A stretch of DNA of 32,000 bases from Verrucomicrobiota bacterium (GTDB lineage: Bacteria > Verrucomicrobiota > Verrucomicrobiia > Chthoniobacterales > UBA6821), in NCBI GenBank assembly GCA_008932965.1, contig WBXG01000010.1, forward strand, positions 3,898-35,897. The letters are read 5' to 3'. Positions 3,978 through 31,909 of this stretch are shown here, piece after piece (the stretch's first letter is position 1; each line of letters opens with the position of its first letter). The notes under the pieces were generated by a model, which made no database searches, was not told the DNA's origin, and saw only the letters and a list, made by a program, of their open reading frames with translations. The translations under genes were made by a program, and so were the position numbers.

Positions 3978-5972
3978 GTGGCGAGACAACTTCTTTTGCA
4001 TTGGGAGAAGAATTTTTTTACTCTTGTTGAATGTGTTAGGAATAAAAAAGGAAGATGGTTATTACATCGGGAAGCGACACACGATCTCTCTCAAGAATCT
4101 GATCAAGATCTTCTCCATCAGCAAGCACTGGACCAACTTCAAACTACTCTCACCGCATGGGATGTACGTAAGGCAAGCCTTCATTGCTTGCTACCTGCCG
4201 AAAAGATTTTCCTTAAGACTCTGGTATTAGAAATCCCAGCTAATCTGGAGGATCTCATCCCAGAGATAGTGAGATTAGAGGCAAAAAAAGTTTTCCCCGT
4301 CCCACTCGAGGAGTTGATTTGGAATTTTCAAATATTCCCCTCTCATACCAAGGGAAAGATTTCTATTCTTTACGCTGCAATTAAAAAAAAATCCATTACC
4401 CCTCTCTTGGAGATGAATTTTTTAACAGAGTTAACTCACATATTTCATACTGATTCGTCGCGAGGCACCGCGAATCCTGATGCAGACACCACCGGCGGTC
4501 GGGAGACCGTGGTGGAGACTGCCCTGGCTTTAAGGGGGCAGCCCTGTAAGGGCGAGACGAGCGGGAGTGAGCGAGTCAACGAAGGTGATGGATTGCAACG
4601 ACGGCTGCATGTTTCATACTGCCCGAGGAGCAATTCGAGGCTGACGCAGTATCCATCAGGTGTTCGCAAGCCACAGCAGAATCGGGATGAAATATCCGGG
4701 TTAAACTTTCAAACAATCTCCTCAACGACACAGGCCCTCTGCGAGTCTCTCCAACTCATCAATCAAAACCAAGAGACCACTCTGATCATCGATATTAATG
4801 GGTCATTACCGAACGTGATTTTGATGAAGCCTCAAGAAATAATTATCAGCTACACCCTCGAGCAAAGAGCAGTAGGGAGTTCCCAATTAGGAAAAATAGA
4901 TACTGATCTTTCACGTATCCTGGAGCAGGCGACCTCGCAAAAGATGATTCCAACACAGATTGTTGTGACCGGAAAAAGTGCACAAAAAAATCAGCTACTT
5001 CTCCTTCTACAAAAGAAATACCAGATTCCAATCAAGGATCTCGATGAACTGCTCCTGAATCACCTCTCTTGGTTACCGACAACGCCAGAAAATTTAGAAA
5101 ATAAAAGTGGCTTCTCAAGGAGCTATGTAGCAGGTGCAATCCATTTTTTTACAAAGAAAAATAGAAATATCGTAGCACAAATATTTCATAATCATCAACC
5201 GCAAAGACTGGTAAGCCTGATGGATACTGGGTTGAACTCGAAGTCTTCCTCCGGCAATCTTTACTCAAGACTATGTCATCAGACTTCATCACGTGCCTTT
5301 TCCCATCAAGTTTCACAGCCTCCTTGTCACCATCAGTATGAAATATTCGATCTCAATCTTCTTCCTCCCTCGTTGGTAGCAAAGCAAAAGTTAAAAAAAC
5401 AACAGTCCTATATCCTAGGGGTCATGACACTAATAACATGCACCTTGCTCCTTGGTTCACTCACTATTTACGACCAAACCAGCCGTCTCATTACAGCCAG
5501 TTCACAGGCTACTTTTTTTTTAATACAAGAGGAAAAAAGACTTCTTTCCTTGGATCAAGAGATAGCTAGCTTTCAAAAGGTTGAAGAAAAAAACGGAGCT
5601 TGGTTTAGGCTTCTCCAAGCACATGCAGCTTGGCCTCGAGTGATTCAAGAAATTCAAAAAGCCCTCCCTAAACGTTATCTCTGGATTACACAATGCTCTG
5701 CTAATGATGATCAGAAAAATATCGATAAGACTTCTTCTCTAACTGCCATTACCCTTGAAGGACTCTATCTAGAAAATCCTCGTCAGGCAGATGTCGTCGA
5801 TGATTTTGTTGAAAAACTCAAAAAATCAGATTTTTTTGATATTAAAAAACAAGAGAAGCAACAACTTCTTTGCTCTCCTAATGATGGAAGTGCTTATGCT
5901 TATCCATGGAAGCTTCGAGTGCCACTCAGGAGTCCTATGAATTTCAATCTTAACCCGGATATTTCATACTGA
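3978..5972 (+). CDS. PilM-like / PilN-like pilus or secretion assembly protein as one fused ORF. It is interrupted in frame by two repeat elements and terminates inside a third.
   Basis: 664-aa ORF with a GTG start. The N-terminal ~400 aa is weakly PilM/actin-like (TLIIDINGSLPNVIL). After aa ~458 it has the PilN hallmark LNLLPP, then a basic stretch, a single TM helix (SYILGVMTLITCTLLLGSLTIY), a coiled region and a C-terminal alpha/beta-type domain. Codons ~153-242 and ~400-458 are encoded by repeat elements (see mobile_element features). Confidence 0.5.
   Translation: MARQLLLHWEKNFFTLVECVRNKKGRWLLHREATHDLSQESDQDLLHQQALDQLQTTLTAWDVRKASLHCLLPAEKIFLKTLVLEIPANLEDLIPEIVRLEAKKVFPVPLEELIWNFQIFPSHTKGKISILYAAIKKKSITPLLEMNFLTELTHIFHTDSSRGTANPDADTTGGRETVVETALALRGQPCKGETSGSERVNEGDGLQRRLHVSYCPRSNSRLTQYPSGVRKPQQNRDEISGLNFQTISSTTQALCESLQLINQNQETTLIIDINGSLPNVILMKPQEIIISYTLEQRAVGSSQLGKIDTDLSRILEQATSQKMIPTQIVVTGKSAQKNQLLLLLQKKYQIPIKDLDELLLNHLSWLPTTPENLENKSGFSRSYVAGAIHFFTKKNRNIVAQIFHNHQPQRLVSLMDTGLNSKSSSGNLYSRLCHQTSSRAFSHQVSQPPCHHQYEIFDLNLLPPSLVAKQKLKKQQSYILGVMTLITCTLLLGSLTIYDQTSRLITASSQATFFLIQEEKRLLSLDQEIASFQKVEEKNGAWFRLLQAHAAWPRVIQEIQKALPKRYLWITQCSANDDQKNIDKTSSLTAITLEGLYLENPRQADVVDDFVEKLKKSDFFDIKKQEKQQLLCSPNDGSAYAYPWKLRVPLRSPMNFNLNPDISY
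4435..4700 (+). mobile_element. MITE-like palindromic element, long form (copy A), inside the PilM-like coding region
   Basis: 266 bp flanked by a direct TTAA at 4431-4434 and 4701-4704. The termini are ctcacATATTTCATACTG ... GATGAAATATccggg. It differs from copy B (24049-24314) by about 28 substitutions and no indels. It is GC-rich relative to its surroundings. Confidence 0.8.
5176..5351 (-). mobile_element. MITE-like element, short form, reverse orientation (copy F), degenerate. It lies at the PilM-like/PilN-like junction.
   Basis: It aligns by eye to the reverse complement of copy C. Shared blocks are AAATATTTCAT, CTCGAAGTCTTCCTC, TCAGACTTCATC, TTCACAGCCTCCT.GTCAC.ATCAGTATGAAATAT. The flanks (gtag / ctca) show no clear duplication, and the central palindrome has been replaced. 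Confidence 0.65.
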
Positions 5973-6127
5973 TTGTGACGAGGAGGCTGTGAAGGCTTAT
6001 GGGGCAAGGCGAGCGATGAAGTCTGACGACGGCTGTGTGTACACACTGCCCGAGGAAGACTTCGAGATCAACGCAGCATCCATCTTACTTCCCGGTCTCC
6101 GCAGTAGATCAGAATGAAATATTTGGG
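5954..6127 (+). mobile_element. MITE-like element, short form (copy C), between convergent genes
   Basis: 174 bp. The left TIR is CCCGGATATTTCATACTGAT and the right TIR is ATCAGAATGAAATATTTGGG. TTAA precedes it at 5950-5953. It folds as a long imperfect hairpin around a central TGTGTACACA. The left TIR provides codons P-D-I-S-Y-stop for the 3978..5972 ORF. Confidence 0.8.
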
Positions 6128-6135
6128 CTCATTGC

Positions 6136-6624
6136 TTACGTGCTATTTTTAATAATAATCATTACCCCTAAGATCACCAAAAAACCTCCCACAAAGGTCA
6201 TCCAATTGAGTTGAATCTCTTGAAAAAAAAGCCATGTAAAAATAACAACAAATAGGGGGTATGAAATTTCAATCATCGCGGCAAGAGATGCATTTTTAGC
6301 ACCCACTGCTTGATAGGTCATCCAAGCACCAAGCGATGCTGTTAGAAGCGAGAAGAGAAACCATCCAGCATAGCGTGGCTCCAGCTCACGAATTTGGGAT
6401 AGAATCGATGTCCCTTTATTACCAAAGAAAAGAACCAATCCAGCAACAAGGACTCCTACAAGAGAATAACAAAAAAAGAACGCCGACGGGGTTACCCTAG
6501 AACGCAAAATTGGGCCACTTGCAGCATAACTGGAGCCCCAAAGCACGGAAGCAGCAACAGCATAGATTACCCATTTTTCATACATAAAAAAAAAGAGCAT
6601 GTTTGAAAAGAGAAGGAGAAACAA
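6136..6624 (-). CDS. Small DMT/EamA-like membrane protein (single EamA-type domain)
   Basis: 162-aa ORF that is entirely hydrophobic with about 5 TM helices. The N-terminus is EamA-like (WVIYAVAASVLWGSSY). The likely true start is the internal Met (MYEKW, about 6585). Confidence 0.5.
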   Translation of the reverse strand: MFLLLFSNMLFFFMYEKWVIYAVAASVLWGSSYAASGPILRSRVTPSAFFFCYSLVGVLVAGLVLFFGNKGTSILSQIRELEPRYAGWFLFSLLTASLGAWMTYQAVGAKNASLAAMIEISYPLFVVIFTWLFFQEIQLNWMTFVGGFLVILGVMIIIKNST

Positions 6625-12530: not shown

Positions 12531-12842
12531 GAGCACCACAGCGACACAGCACTTCGCTGCAGAAGATATTTTTTAAAATGAAATTTCTTTTTTAATCGCT
12601 CTTATGCTGATGAAATGCAAGAAGTCGAGGAGCACAGATGACGAGCGTATAGTTAATACGTGAGAAGTCGAGCACCACAGCGACACAGCACTTCGCTGCA
12701 GAAGATATTTTTAAAATGAAATTTCTTTTTTAATCGCTCTTATGCTGATGAAATGCAAGAAGTCGAGGAGCACAGATGACGAGCGTATAGTTAATACGTG
12801 AGGAGTCGAGCACCACAGCGACACGGCACTTCGCTGCAGAAG
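12531..12842. repeat. Tandem direct repeat, 2.25 copies of a 138-139-bp unit, immediately upstream of tRNA-Ser
   Basis: Units start at 12531, 12670 and 12808 (GAGCACCACAGCGACAC...). Copies 1 and 2 are nearly identical apart from one T-run length difference and a few substitutions. Copy 3 breaks off after GCAGAAGA. Confidence 0.9.
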
Positions 12843-12861
12843 AGCGATTAAAAAAGAAATT

Positions 12862-12962: not shown

Positions 12963-13054
12963 CCCGGTTAGCCGGGTATCACCATCCTTTGACTGCCTTG
13001 TACTAATGAAGCTTTGTACGGCGCCTTGCGACAGATCAGTATGAAATATCAGGT
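12963..13054 (+). mobile_element. Truncated or degenerate MITE-like copy (copy E), right half only
   Basis: The right terminus GATCAGTATGAAATATCAGGT matches the family right TIR and is followed by TTAG (13055-13058). Upstream, GTATCACCATCCTTTGACTGCCTT resembles GCATCCATCCTTGCTTCCCGTCCT of copy D. The left boundary is uncertain (CCCGGTTAGCCGGG hairpin at 12963-12976). Confidence 0.5.
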
Positions 13055-13341
13055 TTAGTATACAGAGGATTTTTTGAAATGAAGGTAGCAGATATTTTTT
13101 TTGCCTTTTTACTAACTAGTGAAAATTCTATTGGCATTTTTAAAAAATCCCCGGGGAATCCACTGAGGGTCGGATTACTGCTTCCTCCAATGATGATGGG
13201 TAGAAGAACAATAAAAAGCTCCTCGAGGTTTTGGATATTGGGATACAACGAGGTTGAAGCAGGTATTTTAAATTCCTCACATAGCAAAGGGTCATTAATG
13301 AGCTTCCCGTCAATGCTCATGAGGACCTTCAATAATGCCAT
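13036..13341 (-). pseudogene. RibD C-terminal-domain / DHFR-like reductase remnant (internally shortened), ending inside copy E
   Basis: 101-aa ORF. The start (KVLMSIDGKL) and end (LEELFIVLLPIIIGGSSNPTLSG) resemble the two ends of RibD_C-type reductase domains. Only about 30 aa lie between them, where roughly 100 would be expected. The C-terminus KPDISY-stop is encoded by the element TIR. Confidence 0.4.
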
Positions 13342-23971: not shown

Positions 23972-24048
23972 AAAAAAAAGTGATCATGACGGTCAAAGAT
24001 GGATTTTATAAAATAGCCAAGAACTAACAATTGAAAACTACGGGCTAG

Positions 24049-24314
24049 TCCGCATATTTCATACTGGTTCGTTGCGAGGCGCAGCAAATCCTGATACAGA
24101 CACCACCGGCGGTCGGGAGACCGCGGTGGAGACTGCCCTGGCTTTAAGGGGGCAGCCTTGAAAGGGCGAGACGAACGGGAGCAAGCGAGTCAATGAAGGT
24201 AACGGATTGCGACGACGGCTGTATATTTCATACTGCCCAAGGAGCAATTCGAGGCTGACGCAGTATCCATCAGGTGTTCGCAAGCCGCAGCAGAATCGGT
24301 ATGAAATATGCAGG
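24049..24314 (+). mobile_element. MITE-like palindromic element, long form (copy B), intergenic
   Basis: 266 bp flanked by a direct CTAG at 24045-24048 and 24315-24318. The termini are tccgcATATTTCATACTG ... GTATGAAATATgcagg. An internal third TIR-like motif (TATATTTCATACTG) lies at 24222-24235. A hand count gives about 55% GC. Confidence 0.85.
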
Positions 24315-24854
24315 CTAGAGCCGTGATAAAGATTTTTGGATGATCTCCACCTCGGTGCCTTGACCAACACTCTCATCAAGACGAATTGCATCAGAAGAAC
24401 TAATACGAATACAACCATAACTCTTAGGATGTCCGAGCGATCGCTCCTCTGGAGTACCATGAATGTAGATACAACGTTTATATGCATTTCTGTTACAACT
24501 CTCTTTTCCCTTGAGCCAAAAAATACGTGTCACAATTGGGTCCCGACCGAATGCATTGGGTAATAAAATTTCCCCTGTTGGCTTTGTATCCTTAAAAACC
24601 ATTCCAGAAGGGGCACCCGATCCGATTTTTTGACAAAGTGTAAAATGCCCCAGGGGAGTTTTATAGCTTCCCATAGTATCTCCTGTTCCATACTTAGAGG
24701 TAGAGACAGGATAGGAGGCCATGGGACGTCCATCTTCATAAACAATCATCTTCTGCTCTACTGTGCTAACAACTATTTTATGGTGTCGATCACCAGCGCA
24801 GCCAGTAAGTAGCAGCAATGAGATAAAACATAAAAACCGCAGTAAAAAAAACAT
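24315..24854 (-). CDS. L,D-transpeptidase (YkuD domain) lipoprotein
   Basis: It has a lipobox LLLTGCAG and the catalytic motif IHGTPEERSLGHPKSYGCIRISSSDA. Its stop codon lies inside the CTAG duplication of element copy B. Confidence 0.85.
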   Translation of the reverse strand: MFFLLRFLCFISLLLLTGCAGDRHHKIVVSTVEQKMIVYEDGRPMASYPVSTSKYGTGDTMGSYKTPLGHFTLCQKIGSGAPSGMVFKDTKPTGEILLPNAFGRDPIVTRIFWLKGKESCNRNAYKRCIYIHGTPEERSLGHPKSYGCIRISSSDAIRLDESVGQGTEVEIIQKSLSRL

Positions 24855-24982: not shown

Positions 24983-25972
24983 ATGAAAAAAGTGAAAAGC
25001 GCTTTTATCCTAGCAGCTGGTAAAGGAACACGTTTGCGCCCACTTACTGAAAAAATACCTAAGCCCCTTCTGCCGGTTTTTCACAAGCCACTGATGACAT
25101 TTGCACTCGATCATTGTATCGCCCTTGATATTGAAAATATCTCTATAAACACATGTCACCTCTATGAGGCTTTCTATGATGCTTTTCAAGTCCAAGAGGT
25201 ACAAGCTAGTTTTGGCCTAGGTCATTATGAGGGCAGAACACTTACCCTTTTTCATGAAAATCCGATCCTAGAAACTGGGGGCGCTCTGCGTAATGCTCGT
25301 TCCGTTTTGGAACAAGGAACTTTTCTCGTGCATAATGGTGATATTTTAACCGATGCCCCCCTTCAAGATCTCATCGATCATCACATTCAATCAAAGTCTA
25401 TGGTAACGCTACTCCTACGCCATGAGGGAGCTGCCAAAAATGTTGCTTATAATGTCAGCAGTGGCGAAATAGAAGGATTTAGTGGCACTTGGAATTCTCT
25501 ACCGTCTCTTGCCACAAAAAACTCTCTTCCTATGGTCTATACAGGCATTGCAGTAATGGAGCCTTCCTTCCTAGATTGGATTCCGATTGAAGGTCCATCA
25601 TCGATGATACCTGCTTTCACAAAAGCTATTGAGCACAAGCAAAAAGTTGGAGGTTTTCTTCTCCCTCACAATTATTTTTGGAGTGATCTTGGAACACCAG
25701 CATCTTACCTCCAAACCCATCTTCATATCGCTCAAAACAATTGGAGACCTCCTTACAAGCTAGGTAAAAAGCACCTTTCATGGCCACAAGCTATTCATCC
25801 TTCAGCCACCATTGACTCTTCTGCCAAACTCGATGGAATGGTAGTTGTAGGAGCTCATACCCATATTGCACCAGGTGCACACTTGAAAAACTGCGTCATC
25901 CTTCCAAGAACAATCATCACCCAGGATGCTCATTTCTCAGAAATGATTCTTAGCCCGGATATTTCCTACTGA
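24983..25972 (+). CDS. Sugar-phosphate nucleotidyltransferase (NTP_transferase family) with a C-terminal left-handed-helix-like tail
   Basis: It has the N-terminal motif LAAGKGTRLRPLT, and hexapeptide-like repeats near the C-terminus. The last codons, PDISY-stop, are supplied by the TIR of element copy D. Confidence 0.75.
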   Translation: MKKVKSAFILAAGKGTRLRPLTEKIPKPLLPVFHKPLMTFALDHCIALDIENISINTCHLYEAFYDAFQVQEVQASFGLGHYEGRTLTLFHENPILETGGALRNARSVLEQGTFLVHNGDILTDAPLQDLIDHHIQSKSMVTLLLRHEGAAKNVAYNVSSGEIEGFSGTWNSLPSLATKNSLPMVYTGIAVMEPSFLDWIPIEGPSSMIPAFTKAIEHKQKVGGFLLPHNYFWSDLGTPASYLQTHLHIAQNNWRPPYKLGKKHLSWPQAIHPSATIDSSAKLDGMVVVGAHTHIAPGAHLKNCVILPRTIITQDAHFSEMILSPDISY

Positions 25973-26130
25973 TCGTGACGAGGAGGCCGCGAAGGCTGAT
26001 GGGGTAAGGCAGGCGAGCATTTTGATGCAGGGCTGTATGTGTACATACTGCCCAAATCAAAATGGGAGTCTAACGCAGCATCCATCCTTGCTTCCCGTCC
26101 TCCGCAGTAGATTAGTATGAAATATCCGGG
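25954..26130 (+). mobile_element. MITE-like element, short form (copy D), between convergent genes
   Basis: 177 bp. The left TIR is CCCGGATATTTCCTACTGAT and the right TIR is ATTAGTATGAAATATCCGGG. The flanks are TTAG (left) and TTAA (right). There is an internal perfect 9-bp stem CATTTTGAT (26018-26026) / ATCAAAATG (26056-26064). Confidence 0.85.
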
Positions 26131-26150
26131 TTAAATAAGAAACATTCGCT

Positions 26151-30109: not shown

Positions 30110-31909
30110 TTATCTTTTTTTTCTACTATTAGTATTCGCTTGGTCTAGTCCTTCAGCTTTCATTTTTAAATCCTTTGCTTCTTCATATTTTTGCTGAATT
30201 ATTTTTTGATTAGGTTCTGGCTTTTGTGCTTCCTGAGCTGCATACCAAAGAAATTCCCCTGCTTCATTAAGGTATGTTGCTTTATTATTCTGACCTGCAG
30301 CATATGCCTCTGCAGCCCGTTGATACATGCTTGCTAACTGAGTAAACAAATCTATAATTTGAGGATTGGGATTTGGCTCTCGTGTTTCTCGAGCTACATT
30401 AAAAAGAGAATCCCCTGCATTACTAAGGCACTCTGCTTTTTTATTCAAACCTTCAGCTTCTGCCTCTGCGGCCTGTTGATGCAAGCTTGCTGACTGAGTA
30501 AACCAATCAATGCTTTGTTGATTAGGTTGTGGCTTTTGTGCCTCCATATCAGCCTCAGAAAGAGAAATCCCTGCATCATTAAGGTATCTTGCTTCATTAT
30601 TCTGATCTACAGCTTCTGCCTCTGCTGCCTGTTGATTCAAGCTTGCTAACTGAGTAAAGCAATCAATGCTTTGTTGATTAGGTTCTGGCTTTTGTGCTTC
30701 CTGAGCTGCATTAAAAAGAGCATCCCCTGCATTATAGAGGTTAACTGCTTTATTATTCTGACCTTCAGCTTTCGCCTCTACGGCCTGTTGATGCAAGCTT
30801 GCTGACTGAGTAAACCAATCAATGCTTTGTTGATTAGGTTCTGGCTTTTGTGCTTCCTGAACTGCATTATGAAGAGCCCATCCTGCATTATAGAGGTTAG
30901 CTGCTTTTGTATTCTGACCTGCAGCACTTGCCTCTACAGCCTGTTGAAAAATACCTGCTGACTGAGTAAGCCAATCAATACATTGTTGATTAGGTTCTGG
31001 CTTTTGTACTTCCTGAGCCATATTATGAAAAGTCCACCCTGCATTACAAAGGTACCCTGCTTTTTTATTCAAACCTTCAGCTTCTGCCTCTGCGGCCTGT
31101 TGATGCAAGATTGCTGACTGAGTAAACCAATCAATGCTTTGTGGCTTAGGTTCTGGCTTTTGTACTTCTAGAGCTACATTAAAAAGAGCAACCCCTGCAA
31201 TATTAAGATACTCTGCTTTTTTATTCAAACCTTCAGCTTCTGCCTCTACGGCCTGTTGAGAAGAGCTTGCTGACTGAGTATACCACTCAATTATTTGTTG
31301 ATTAGGATTTGGCTTTTGTGCTTCCTCGGCCGCATGAAAAAGAGCATTCCCTGCATTATTAAGGTATATTGCTTTATTATTCTGACCTGCAGTTTCTGCC
31401 TCTGCGGCCTGTTGATGCAAGCCTGCTATCTGATTATACCACTCAATTATTTGTTGATTAGGATTTGGCTTTTGTGCTTCCTCGGCAATTTCTTGAAACA
31501 TCACTGCTGCTCTATTTAAGAAGGACTGGCTATTACCAAGAGGAAGCAATGGAACTTGAGCGAATAGATCTTCACTTTGAGCCAGCGCTTCTTCTTTAAT
31601 GCAGAGCCATTTATTTGCTAAAAAAACGGCCTGTTGGTCTTCATGGAGCGTTTCATAAGGTGGGCGTAACACTGTGGCAGAAGCGACTCTGGCTCCAATA
31701 AGATTAGACTGATGAGTGATCGCATTAAGGAGATGTCCACTGTTAATTAACGTAGGATGATCTTCTCCCATTGGCTCAATTTGTTGGGCTATCTCTATCT
31801 CACTTTCTAGTTGTTGCGATCTCTCTTGATAAGTGGCTAGTTGGGCGTAATCGATTTCCAGTTTTTCTGCTAGTACCTCGATTTTATTGGGGCGCTCATT
31901 GAGTTTCAT
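30110..31909 (-). CDS. Tandem-repeat protein (about 8.3 x 52-aa helical-looking repeats). No signal peptide is evident.
   Basis: 599-aa ORF. The repeat consensus is roughly AQKPEPNQQSIDWFTQSASLHQQAAEAEAEGQNNKA.YLNNAG.ALFNAAQE. It has a non-repetitive ~140-aa N-terminus and a short basic tail. Confidence 0.7.
   Translation of the reverse strand: MKLNERPNKIEVLAEKLEIDYAQLATYQERSQQLESEIEIAQQIEPMGEDHPTLINSGHLLNAITHQSNLIGARVASATVLRPPYETLHEDQQAVFLANKWLCIKEEALAQSEDLFAQVPLLPLGNSQSFLNRAAVMFQEIAEEAQKPNPNQQIIEWYNQIAGLHQQAAEAETAGQNNKAIYLNNAGNALFHAAEEAQKPNPNQQIIEWYTQSASSSQQAVEAEAEGLNKKAEYLNIAGVALFNVALEVQKPEPKPQSIDWFTQSAILHQQAAEAEAEGLNKKAGYLCNAGWTFHNMAQEVQKPEPNQQCIDWLTQSAGIFQQAVEASAAGQNTKAANLYNAGWALHNAVQEAQKPEPNQQSIDWFTQSASLHQQAVEAKAEGQNNKAVNLYNAGDALFNAAQEAQKPEPNQQSIDCFTQLASLNQQAAEAEAVDQNNEARYLNDAGISLSEADMEAQKPQPNQQSIDWFTQSASLHQQAAEAEAEGLNKKAECLSNAGDSLFNVARETREPNPNPQIIDLFTQLASMYQRAAEAYAAGQNNKATYLNEAGEFLWYAAQEAQKPEPNQKIIQQKYEEAKDLKMKAEGLDQANTNSRKKR
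30190..31500 (-). repeat. 156-bp tandem coding repeat array inside the 30110..31909 CDS
   Basis: The motif TTGTTGATTAGGTTCTGGCTTTTGT, or close variants of it, recurs in phase at 30203, 30359, 30515, 30671, 30827, 30983, 31139, 31295 and 31451. The period is exactly 156 bp. Confidence 0.9.

Follow-up and report, generated by a model that had tools for sequence, protein, structure and literature searches.

A miniature transposon family of freshwater Verrucomicrobia at the meeting point of two convergent genes, and its part in gene endings

Copy C and the convergent genes around it

The stretch of 32,000 nt analysed here (contig WBXG01000010.1, positions 3,898 to 35,897; the window) carries six copies of a hairpin-forming repeat, labelled A to F, one of which, copy C, lies between a PilM/N-like ORF and an EamA-family gene. 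The features of this part of the window are as follows.

3978-5972, plus strand: PilM/N-like ORF, 664 aa, with copies A and B as in-frame parts and its stop inside copy C
4431-4704, plus strand: copy A, long form with a TTAA/TTAA duplication, read in frame within the PilM/N-like ORF
5172-5355, minus strand: copy B, a reverse-oriented short form that the ORF reads in frame where its PilM and PilN parts meet
5950-5953, plus strand: TTAA at the left target-duplication site of copy C; the consensus of the family is YTAR at either flank
5954-6127, plus strand: copy C, short-form miniature transposon of 174 nt with a full-length hairpin (nhmmer, folding, alignment)
5954-5977, plus strand: left terminal inverted repeat (TIR) of copy C, CCCGGATATTTCATACTGATTGTG, containing TGA at 5970-5972
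6104-6127, plus strand: right TIR of copy C, degenerate, ending GATCAGAATGAAATATTTGGG against a consensus of GATCAGTATGAAATATCCGGG
6128-6131, plus strand: right target-duplication position of copy C, CTCA, mismatched with the left TTAA
6136-6624, minus strand: EamA-family gene, complete, convergent on copy C (Pfam EamA, E 1.9e-13)

An earlier note had described copy C as a transposon-like repeat that takes up the intergenic space where the two genes converge. Both statements were confirmed, as all coordinates hold and the 15-nt core of the TIR gave 14 matches (≤3 mismatches) against 1.6 expected. The nhmmer match of copy C (5950-6130, E 5e-59) could be placed in one alignment with 92 other copies, and the proposed boundaries of 5954-6127 on the plus strand were retained with the addition of the 4-bp target-duplication positions, which are unmatched for this copy. 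The PilM/N-like ORF, which shows weak PilM_2 and PilN matches, reads the left TTAA within the codons ctT AAc and finishes as ctt aac ccg gat att tca tac TGA, that is NFNLNPDISY-stop. To the right of copy C the sequence reads TTGCTTACGTGC, and the stop of the EamA gene (6136-6138) lies 8 nt beyond the end of the right TIR (6127). Copy A has a net insert of 270 nt, equal to 90 codons, and a fold of -113 kcal/mol, and its empty site in orthologues (loci L003 and L004) is a single TTAA.

The element family and its transposition signature

Copy C belongs to a previously undescribed miniature transposon (MITE) family of freshwater Verrucomicrobia. A total of 204 merged copies, 135 of them full length, were found in 738 kb of loci that come from six lake MAGs of Chthoniobacterales/Verrucomicrobia. 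These counts as well as differences within the element may be distorted because repeats are a weak point of MAG and metagenome assembly; the 738 kb represent loci around short copies, and the source MAGs are fragmented. The family has a short form of 176 nt (net insert 180 nt) and a long form of about 266 nt (net insert 270 nt), with a TIR of about 24 nt, CCCGGATATTTCATACTGATCGTG, which starts with CCCGG and is at least 90% conserved across 93 copies. Both ends present the same inward-reading sequence, YTAR-CCCGGATATTTCATACTGA, and the boundaries of the family consensus are sharp at YTAR. Insertion sites are mostly TTAA or CTAG, and identical 4-bp flanks were detected for 67 of 117 copies. The duplication is direct, with 10 direct and 0 inverted cases among non-palindromic pairs (TTAG/TTAG 8 times, TTAG/CTAA 0). 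The family shows TIRs, a direct duplication, small size, many copies and no transposase gene, as expected of a MITE; its sole open frame encodes a 60-residue low-complexity peptide.

Duplications of 4 bp with the sequence YTAR are made by IS5 (PMC5009759), and the direct YTAR duplication of this family suggests that it would be mobilised in trans by a DDE transposase of the IS5 type. Other than in the IS5 group, neither a transposase gene nor a full-length IS with the family termini, CCCGGATATTTCATACTGAT, was found in the sequence examined (largest TIR pair spacing in the loci searched, 490 nt; 57 solo TIRs inspected, just long forms, truncated and nested copies), so that the assignment to IS5 is made from the target duplication by itself. 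The median fold of the family is -87 kcal/mol, compared to -50 kcal/mol for shuffles; since RNAalifold of the 93 copies recovered the TIR stem alone, with subfamily interiors out of register, we relied on per-copy folds. An Rfam scan of the window at gathering score gave two tRNAs and nothing else.

The junction at copy C

Orthologues of the PilM/N-like protein (P0002/P0003) end with ENAIEEINKGEFLTKK, a 16-residue tail missing from the window gene, and the pilO/P/secretin-like genes downstream of them in L003/L004 are absent from the window. On the other side, locus L054 keeps the order EamA-CYTH-ABC-F, and its EamA orthologue of 150 aa has the same end point as the window gene, with a different 3' neighbour. 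Because two conserved gene blocks thus meet at copy C and the flanking tetranucleotides are unmatched, the PilM/N tail and the pilus genes were most likely lost by a rearrangement there and not by a simple insertion. The pair TTAA/CTCA is seen at copy C only, in the window and in the contigs L005 and L006. Such a rearrangement would be either a deletion next to the element or a recombination of one copy with another, both of which have been linked to IS copies without matched duplications (PMC11708052), and the presence of chimeric copies indicates that copies of the family do recombine. Taken as a whole, the reading of copy C as an IS5-like MITE copy, with gene endings set by frame and a loss of the PilM/N tail and pilus genes by rearrangement, is in our view highly probable.

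The most serious competitor is a plain insertion of copy C into the last codons of the PilM/N-like gene with later decay of the right flank, the difference in synteny being unrelated. Decay of the flanks alone could explain the mismatch, as the flanks of copy B (TGAG/CTAC) are fully unmatched though both its sides are contiguous in orthologues, and the right terminus of copy C indeed shows several substitutions; moreover, as the comparison genomes are distant (about 50-60% protein identity), the synteny break may predate the element or have nothing to do with it. However, the reconstructed pre-insertion reading, NFNLNCLRAIFNNNHYP followed by a stop, shows no resemblance to the tail of the orthologues and would run about 38 nt into the EamA gene, and in both conserved gene blocks the break coincides precisely with the element, which leaves a plain insertion possible but rather unlikely.

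The earlier note had also proposed that a hairpin between convergent genes acts as a bidirectional terminator or 3' mRNA stabiliser, as for REP/BIME, ERIC and Correia elements. The hairpin of copy C is very stable on both strands (-75.7 kcal/mol, z = -5.4; opposite strand -59.1 kcal/mol), and a copy is found in 27 of 54 convergent gaps compared to 18% of tandem gaps (odds ratio 4.7, p = 1.4e-6), without orientation bias (27 vs 28), which fits a symmetric hairpin. However, 32% of divergent (promoter) gaps also hold a copy, and surviving insertions are expected where operons and promoters stay unsplit, so that tolerance of insertions in convergent gaps explains the excess equally well. Neither strand carries an intrinsic terminator (GC-rich stem plus U-run; 0 sites in 5700-6400), and 18 of 130 full copies are located within ORFs that read through them. 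Following an argument made for QMITE2 (PMC5896051), stems of 60-70 bp may by analogy rather be RNase III substrates than protective 3' hairpins. We therefore regard retention of the hairpin for such a role as improbable, and would see any influence on the 3' ends of transcripts as a side effect of the hairpin.

The elements named as precedents share certain traits with the family. Neisseria Correia elements (CREE/NEMIS) have a TA duplication as well as IHF and promoter motifs. They resemble the family as abundant MITEs of about 100-160 nt with TIRs of the 26-nt class and long transcript hairpins, often adjoining gene ends, but the duplication here is YTAR and not TA, and a scan around copy C gave no promoter-like site. 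REPs are moved by RAYT enzymes. REP/BIME and ERIC elements are likewise palindromes between genes for which effects on termination or mRNA stability have been proposed, but the family consists of 176-nt elements with TIRs (CCCGG start) and duplications, not of 20-40 nt palindromes. REPs of 20-40 nt with GTAG/CGTC heads are described in PMC3733652, and according to PMC2759123 ERIC/RU elements may contain ORFs and are also located within genes.

A chimeric assembly across the repeat, for which repeats of about 180 nt at roughly one per 6 kb would be a classic metagenome source, can practically be dismissed, as the identical join with its flanks recurs in contigs of two other, independently assembled JGI metagenomes (L005, L006) and an NCBI MAG of the window's lineage (proteins MDH4469687.1 and MDH4470888.1) encodes a 664-aa protein with the same end.

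Reading frame and the fate of host genes

Besides copies A to C, the following features bear on the ends of the genes struck.

12970-13058, minus strand: copy E, half element with one arm and TTAG, adjoining a tRNA-Ser; gives the ORF at 13036-13341 its KPDISY-stop
13036-13341, minus strand: ORF of 101 aa, ending YTKPDISY-stop inside copy E
24045-24318, plus strand: copy F, long form with CTAG/CTAG
24315-24854, minus strand: YkuD gene, whose TAG stop is at the right duplication of copy F
24983-25972: NTP_transferase (nucleotidyltransferase) ORF, Pfam E 2e-23, ending EMILSPDISY-stop inside copy D
25950-26134, plus strand: copy D, short form with TTAG/TTAA, 16 nt from the stop of a convergent AdoHcy hydrolase gene; gives the nucleotidyltransferase its SPDISY-stop

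That PDISY-stop is encoded by the TIR of the element and common to three unrelated ORFs, as claimed in the earlier note, was found to be correct. Two details were revised, as the 101-aa ORF, labelled RibD_C-like before, has no Pfam match even at E = 1, and copy E is not a mere terminal fragment; with about 85 nt (12970-13054) it makes up half of an element. The frame in which a gene enters either end of the element sets its fate: a stop in the duplication, (N/S/K)PDISY followed by TGA, or an open frame, L-[AT]-R-I-F-H-T-D ... Q-Y-E-I-[SC]-G-L, which spans the whole 60- or 90-codon insert. The endings of the three ORFs represent the second of these, because the TIR carries TGA in one frame. All three fates occur in the window, with the YkuD gene stopping in the duplication of copy F, the PilM/N-like, nucleotidyltransferase and 101-aa ORFs ending in C, D and E, and copies A and B being read through.

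We counted 55 gene-like ORFs that run into a copy after at least 100 upstream codons: 24 stopped in the duplicated TAA/TAG, 11 ended in PDIS[YHC]-stop and 20 entered the open frame, 14 of which read through the whole element. Eleven further ORFs in related genomes share the ending of the window ORFs, and this outcome is not enriched among the three frames (24/11/20, p = 0.09). As the ending follows mechanically from the reading frame, the PDISY tail needs no functional explanation. A selected C-terminal tag (e.g. for sorting or proteolysis) spread to host proteins by the element, to which the same ending kept in the 101-aa ORF across two MAGs and an independent origin in two nucleotidyltransferase lineages might point, was rejected on the frame frequencies and is extremely unlikely, since PDISY is the rarest outcome (11/55), varies (PDISH, PDISC, PHISH) and occurs on unrelated cytoplasmic and membrane proteins.

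The further claim that native 3' ends had been displaced is well supported for the PilM/N-like gene only, which lacks the orthologue tail and the downstream pilus genes. For the nucleotidyltransferase the displacement amounts to one trivial codon, because the reconstructed empty site reads EMILK-stop; more distant orthologues are 8-12 residues longer. As to the 101-aa ORF, the orthologue from a second MAG shares both the half element and the ending. All full-length cluster members are 664 or 329 aa long, and the insertions therefore appear fixed. A search of the metagenome collection with the left flank of copy C for an empty-site or alternative allele gave 0 matches despite the presence of this flank in L005/L006, indicating that the collection does not include the window's lineage. 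Between the window and L005 the PilM/N-like ORF shows 10 nonsynonymous and 1 synonymous differences, and neighbouring genes also show few, mostly nonsynonymous, differences.

The open frame characterises the family as a whole: both orientations are open in 33 of 93 copies, compared to 27 of 1860 with shuffled interiors, and the net length is divisible by 3 in 64 of 93. Excision of the hairpin at the RNA level is unlikely, as an insert removed before translation would not keep frames free of stops or a length that is a multiple of 3. In unrelated proteins (Amt, secretin, PMT, OprB, TPR) the element peptide is the sole common part; it is carried by P0004-P0009 and P0031/P0032.

The family resembles two known groups of repeats in its behaviour. 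It works like the Rickettsia palindromic elements (RPEs) but is not counted among them; RPEs are hairpin-forming repeats inside unrelated protein-coding genes and between genes (PMC10969869). The family shares with them hairpin repeats of about 150-180 nt, an intergenic as well as in-frame location in unrelated genes (here A and B in the PilM/N-like ORF and the 14 ORFs read through) and a conserved added peptide. It differs in its host, Chthoniobacterales/Verrucomicrobia being another phylum and not known as obligate intracellular, in its clear 24-nt TIRs and YTAR duplication, and in having the same frame open whichever way it is inserted, with 60- and 90-codon forms. QMITE1/QMITE2 of Coxiella burnetii overlap 3' ends of functional genes and give them a few C-terminal residues and/or a stop (PMC5896051); 3'-end overlap, a supplied C-terminus or stop, a stem that is long and stable and, now and then, an insertion in frame within a gene are common to both. 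QMITE2 has direct repeats of 7-9 bp, unique for each copy (PMC5896051), whereas YTAR is fixed here, and the two share no known relation in sequence or host.

The family may have evolved so as to do little damage in densely coding DNA, with every entry frame benign in either orientation (an immediate stop in the duplicated TAA/TAG, a tail of six residues before a stop, or 60 or 90 codons read through without a stop), and to serve as a donor of loops and tails and a substrate for recombination, an idea we put forward tentatively. If true, it would colonise gene ends and interiors in free-living freshwater Verrucomicrobia and give proteins new loop and tail segments, reshuffle gene order by recombination, and represent a system like the RPEs in bacteria that are not obligate intracellular, one whose transposition signature can be identified. 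Should this compatibility with coding sequence be a real design, the family would be a tractable case by virtue of its many copies, its several subfamilies and its known empty sites, and a model for selfish DNA that is tolerated within proteins and drives gene-order change in streamlined environmental genomes. The family is also a clean natural example of a transposon end sequence deciding the fate of the genes struck, and it accounts for odd annotations in lake Verrucomicrobia MAGs, such as peptides common to unrelated proteins, extended N- or C-termini and contig breaks. Predicted peptides across host-element junctions include TELTHIFHTD, QYEIFDLNLLPP and NLNPDISY.

Copy C and its family

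The earlier note placed copy C between two convergent stops at 5950-6138, and the sequence and the ORFs agree with this description. At the left end of this stretch the sequence is ctt aac ccg gat att tca tac TGA, and the 664-aa PilM/N-like ORF (3978-5972) ends here with ..NFNLNPDISY-stop. An EamA-family ORF (6136-6624, minus strand; Pfam E 1.9e-13) converges on C and stops 8 nt past the right inverted repeat, whose last base is 6127. Copy C is a single long hairpin (plus strand -75.7 kcal/mol, z = -5.4; minus strand -59.1 kcal/mol, z = -3.3), and the TTAA and CTCA at its flanks are unmatched. It belongs to one repeat, without a match in Rfam, of which the window has six copies (five full, one partial); the 15-nt terminal core was found 14 times with up to 3 mismatches (1.6 expected).

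Copies of the repeat in the window
4431-4704: copy A, long form
5172-5355: copy B, reverse orientation
5950-6131: copy C
12970-13058: copy E, half element (one hairpin arm), abutting tRNA-Ser(CGA)
24045-24318: copy F, long form
25950-26134: copy D

Two tandem repeats were also observed. A 138-nt repeat (12531-12843; 2.3 copies, 98% identity) immediately precedes tRNA-Ser, its last unit extending into the 5' flank of the tRNA gene, and a 156-nt (52-codon) repeat (30202-31482; 8.2 copies, ~79% identity) lies within a 599-aa ORF (30110-31909, minus strand), which encodes a repeat protein.

The source organism is an uncultivated freshwater verrucomicrobium; proteins of the window were also found in lake metagenomes from JGI and in MAGs at NCBI under the labels Verrucomicrobiae or Chthoniobacterales. 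A paired-terminus pattern scan of one genome per species led to at least 101 stretches. Among the matches listed, nearly all came from six lake MAGs (Kiruna_bin-02438, Tobar2m-G38, Deming_bin.170, SMAG_U8253, WGG202013 and a Lac Pavin MAG), and ~15 scattered in unrelated taxa look like chance. With a profile of copies B, C and D, 738 kb of loci yielded 204 copies that do not overlap, of which 135 are full length; the family consensus is 176 nt, and conservation ends sharply beyond a flanking YTAR tetranucleotide. As the 4-bp flanks were identical in 67 of 117 copies, non-palindromic pairs were always direct (TTAG/TTAG eight times) and never inverted, and the empty site of copy A has a single TTAA at the orthologous position in two other contigs, YTAR is a direct target duplication that lies outside the inverted repeat. 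IS5 generates 4-bp duplications with this consensus (PMC5009759). In the loci examined, terminus pairs were spaced at ~176 nt (n = 124) or ~260-290 nt (n = 14), with a maximum of 490 nt, and none of these loci had a full-length IS bounded by such termini. We therefore class the element as a MITE and infer that an IS5-type transposase probably moves it in trans.

In the alignment of the copies, left and right arms fall into at least four subfamilies, every one of which pairs as a full hairpin; chimeric copies, whose arms do not match, form 19-44 pairs instead of ~67, and some copies were nested in others at TTAA (examples of these types: L056:3663-3846, L094:1748-1931, L086:3961-4147 and L072:6850). 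In SMAG_U8253, a copy (L054 6137-6322) occupies the divergent promoter gap between a CYTH and an EamA gene, the same pair that flanks the right side of C.

Gene ends within the element

The same note had read the PDISY-stop ending as element-encoded and common to three ORFs. This was borne out: besides the PilM/N-like ORF, the nucleotidyltransferase ORF (24983-25972) ends with ..EMILSPDISY-stop and a 101-aa ORF (13036-13341, minus strand) with ..YTKPDISY-stop, the terminal-repeat TGA being read in one frame. As both ends of the element read inward as YTAR-CCCGGATATTTCATACTGA, the fate of a gene entering a copy depends on frame only. There were 55 non-redundant cases of an ORF reaching a full-length copy after 100 or more open codons: 24 stopped at TAA or TAG within the duplication, 11 ended as ..PDIS[YHC]-stop at the terminal-repeat TGA, and 20 entered the third frame (L-[AT]-R-I-F-H-T-D...), 14 of these reading through the whole element and continuing for up to 2.7 kb. 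Entry by either end was equally frequent (27 vs 28), and the split among outcomes was compatible with equal thirds (chi-square 4.8, p = 0.09), PDISY being the rarest. The commonest, the duplication stop, leaves the protein unchanged, as for the YkuD L,D-transpeptidase gene (24315-24854, minus strand), whose TAG stop is the CTAG duplication of copy F (24315-24318). All three outcomes are present in the window, with this stop at F, PDISY at C, D and E, and read-through at A and B. The common PDISY ending is thus real, but a mechanical product of frame, and no function is needed for it.

The proposed displacement of native 3' ends applies to PilM/N, where the orthologue tail and operon differ, and is trivial for the nucleotidyltransferase: joining the flanks of copy D gives GAA ATG ATT CTT AAA TAA (..EMILK-stop), one residue thus being replaced by six. 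Element-free orthologues of this enzyme (60-68% identity) have 8-12 more residues; in a further orthologue (P0026, 74% identity), a separately acquired copy lies 12 residues beyond this point and the protein again ends in PDISY. As the Tobar2m-G38 orthologue of the 101-aa ORF has the same half element by tRNA-Ser (L014 4230-4330) and the same ..PDISY-stop, the insertion of copy E is old. Coxiella QMITEs overlap gene 3' ends, giving a few residues or a stop codon (PMC5896051), as the present copies do.

The junction at copy C and the role of the hairpin

PilM/N orthologues end with ..F[DN][LF]ENA[IS]EEINK[GS]EFLTKK-stop; downstream, their contigs have pilO/P-like genes and a gene for a secretin, none of which had a match anywhere in the window, and nucleotide homology of these contigs to the window ends at the left edge of C. 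On the other side, the EamA-CYTH-ABC-F block is conserved in SMAG_U8253, which has a complete 150-aa EamA gene with a RecD-like 3' neighbour. Copy C therefore lies at the exact meeting point of two conserved blocks. For IS elements that have no duplications, the causes given are decay, an adjacent deletion or recombination between copies (PMC11708052), and recombination within the present family is shown by chimeric copies whose arms derive from different subfamilies. Gene order also breaks at another copy, the long form at L004 1311-1582: exactly there, upstream synteny with L003 and the window is lost and a TPP enzyme gene replaces RecR. From the meeting blocks, the unmatched flanks, the chimeric copies and this second break, we think that a rearrangement at C removed both the PilM/N tail and the operon downstream of it. 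The unmatched flank could also be due to decay, as the flanks of copy B have decayed although its sides are contiguous. The join is not a misassembly, since it was found again in two other metagenome assemblies and one NCBI MAG.

That the family hairpin is a selected terminator or stabiliser, as also proposed, seems improbable to us. Its fold is strong (median -87 kcal/mol vs -50 ± 6 for shuffles; ~67 pairs in full-length register), and copies occupy 27 of 54 convergent gaps vs 49 of 279 tandem and 20 of 63 divergent ones (convergent vs tandem: odds ratio 4.7, p = 1.4e-6). However, the same convergent enrichment is expected if copies survive where they interrupt neither an operon nor a promoter, many copies lie in promoter-side gaps or within genes, and a U-run 3' of the stem of C, looked for on both strands, is absent.

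Copies in frame within genes

A more striking feature than the PDISY ending are the in-frame copies, of which A and B lie outside the coordinates of the earlier note. As read from the sequence, both are translated in frame within the PilM/N-like ORF; two orthologues (P0002 and P0003, ~50% identity) are without A, B and C and have their own in-frame copy at another site. In P0031 and P0032, which are orthologues of the nucleotidyltransferase, one or two copies are located mid-enzyme. Homology searches matched an ammonium transporter, a secretin, a PMT glycosyltransferase, a TPR protein and an OprB porin via the element peptide only (..ARIFHTDSSRGAANPDA...LTQYPSGVRKPQQNRYEICGL), some of these matches probably being over-extended gene calls at N-termini. 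Net insert length is 180 nt in the modal short form and 270 nt in the long one; it was divisible by 3 in 64 of 93 copies, and 33 of the 93 were stop-free in the read-through frame in both orientations, compared with 27 of 1860 with shuffled interiors. Well inside long ORFs were 18 of 130 full copies. Such in-frame insertion has been described for Rickettsia palindromic elements (PMC10969869), which the present copies resemble in this respect. In the searched literature nothing was found on such repeats in Chthoniobacterales or Spartobacteria; the family is new and its kind is known, a MITE whose tolerance of coding DNA is RPE-like and whose target signature resembles that of IS5.

Between near-identical strains (window 3978-6140 vs L005/L006), copies A and C diverge by 3.4-3.8%, compared with 0.7% for the flanking coding DNA and 0% for copy B; the excess in A and C could be due to gene conversion among copies or to repeat collapse in assembly.
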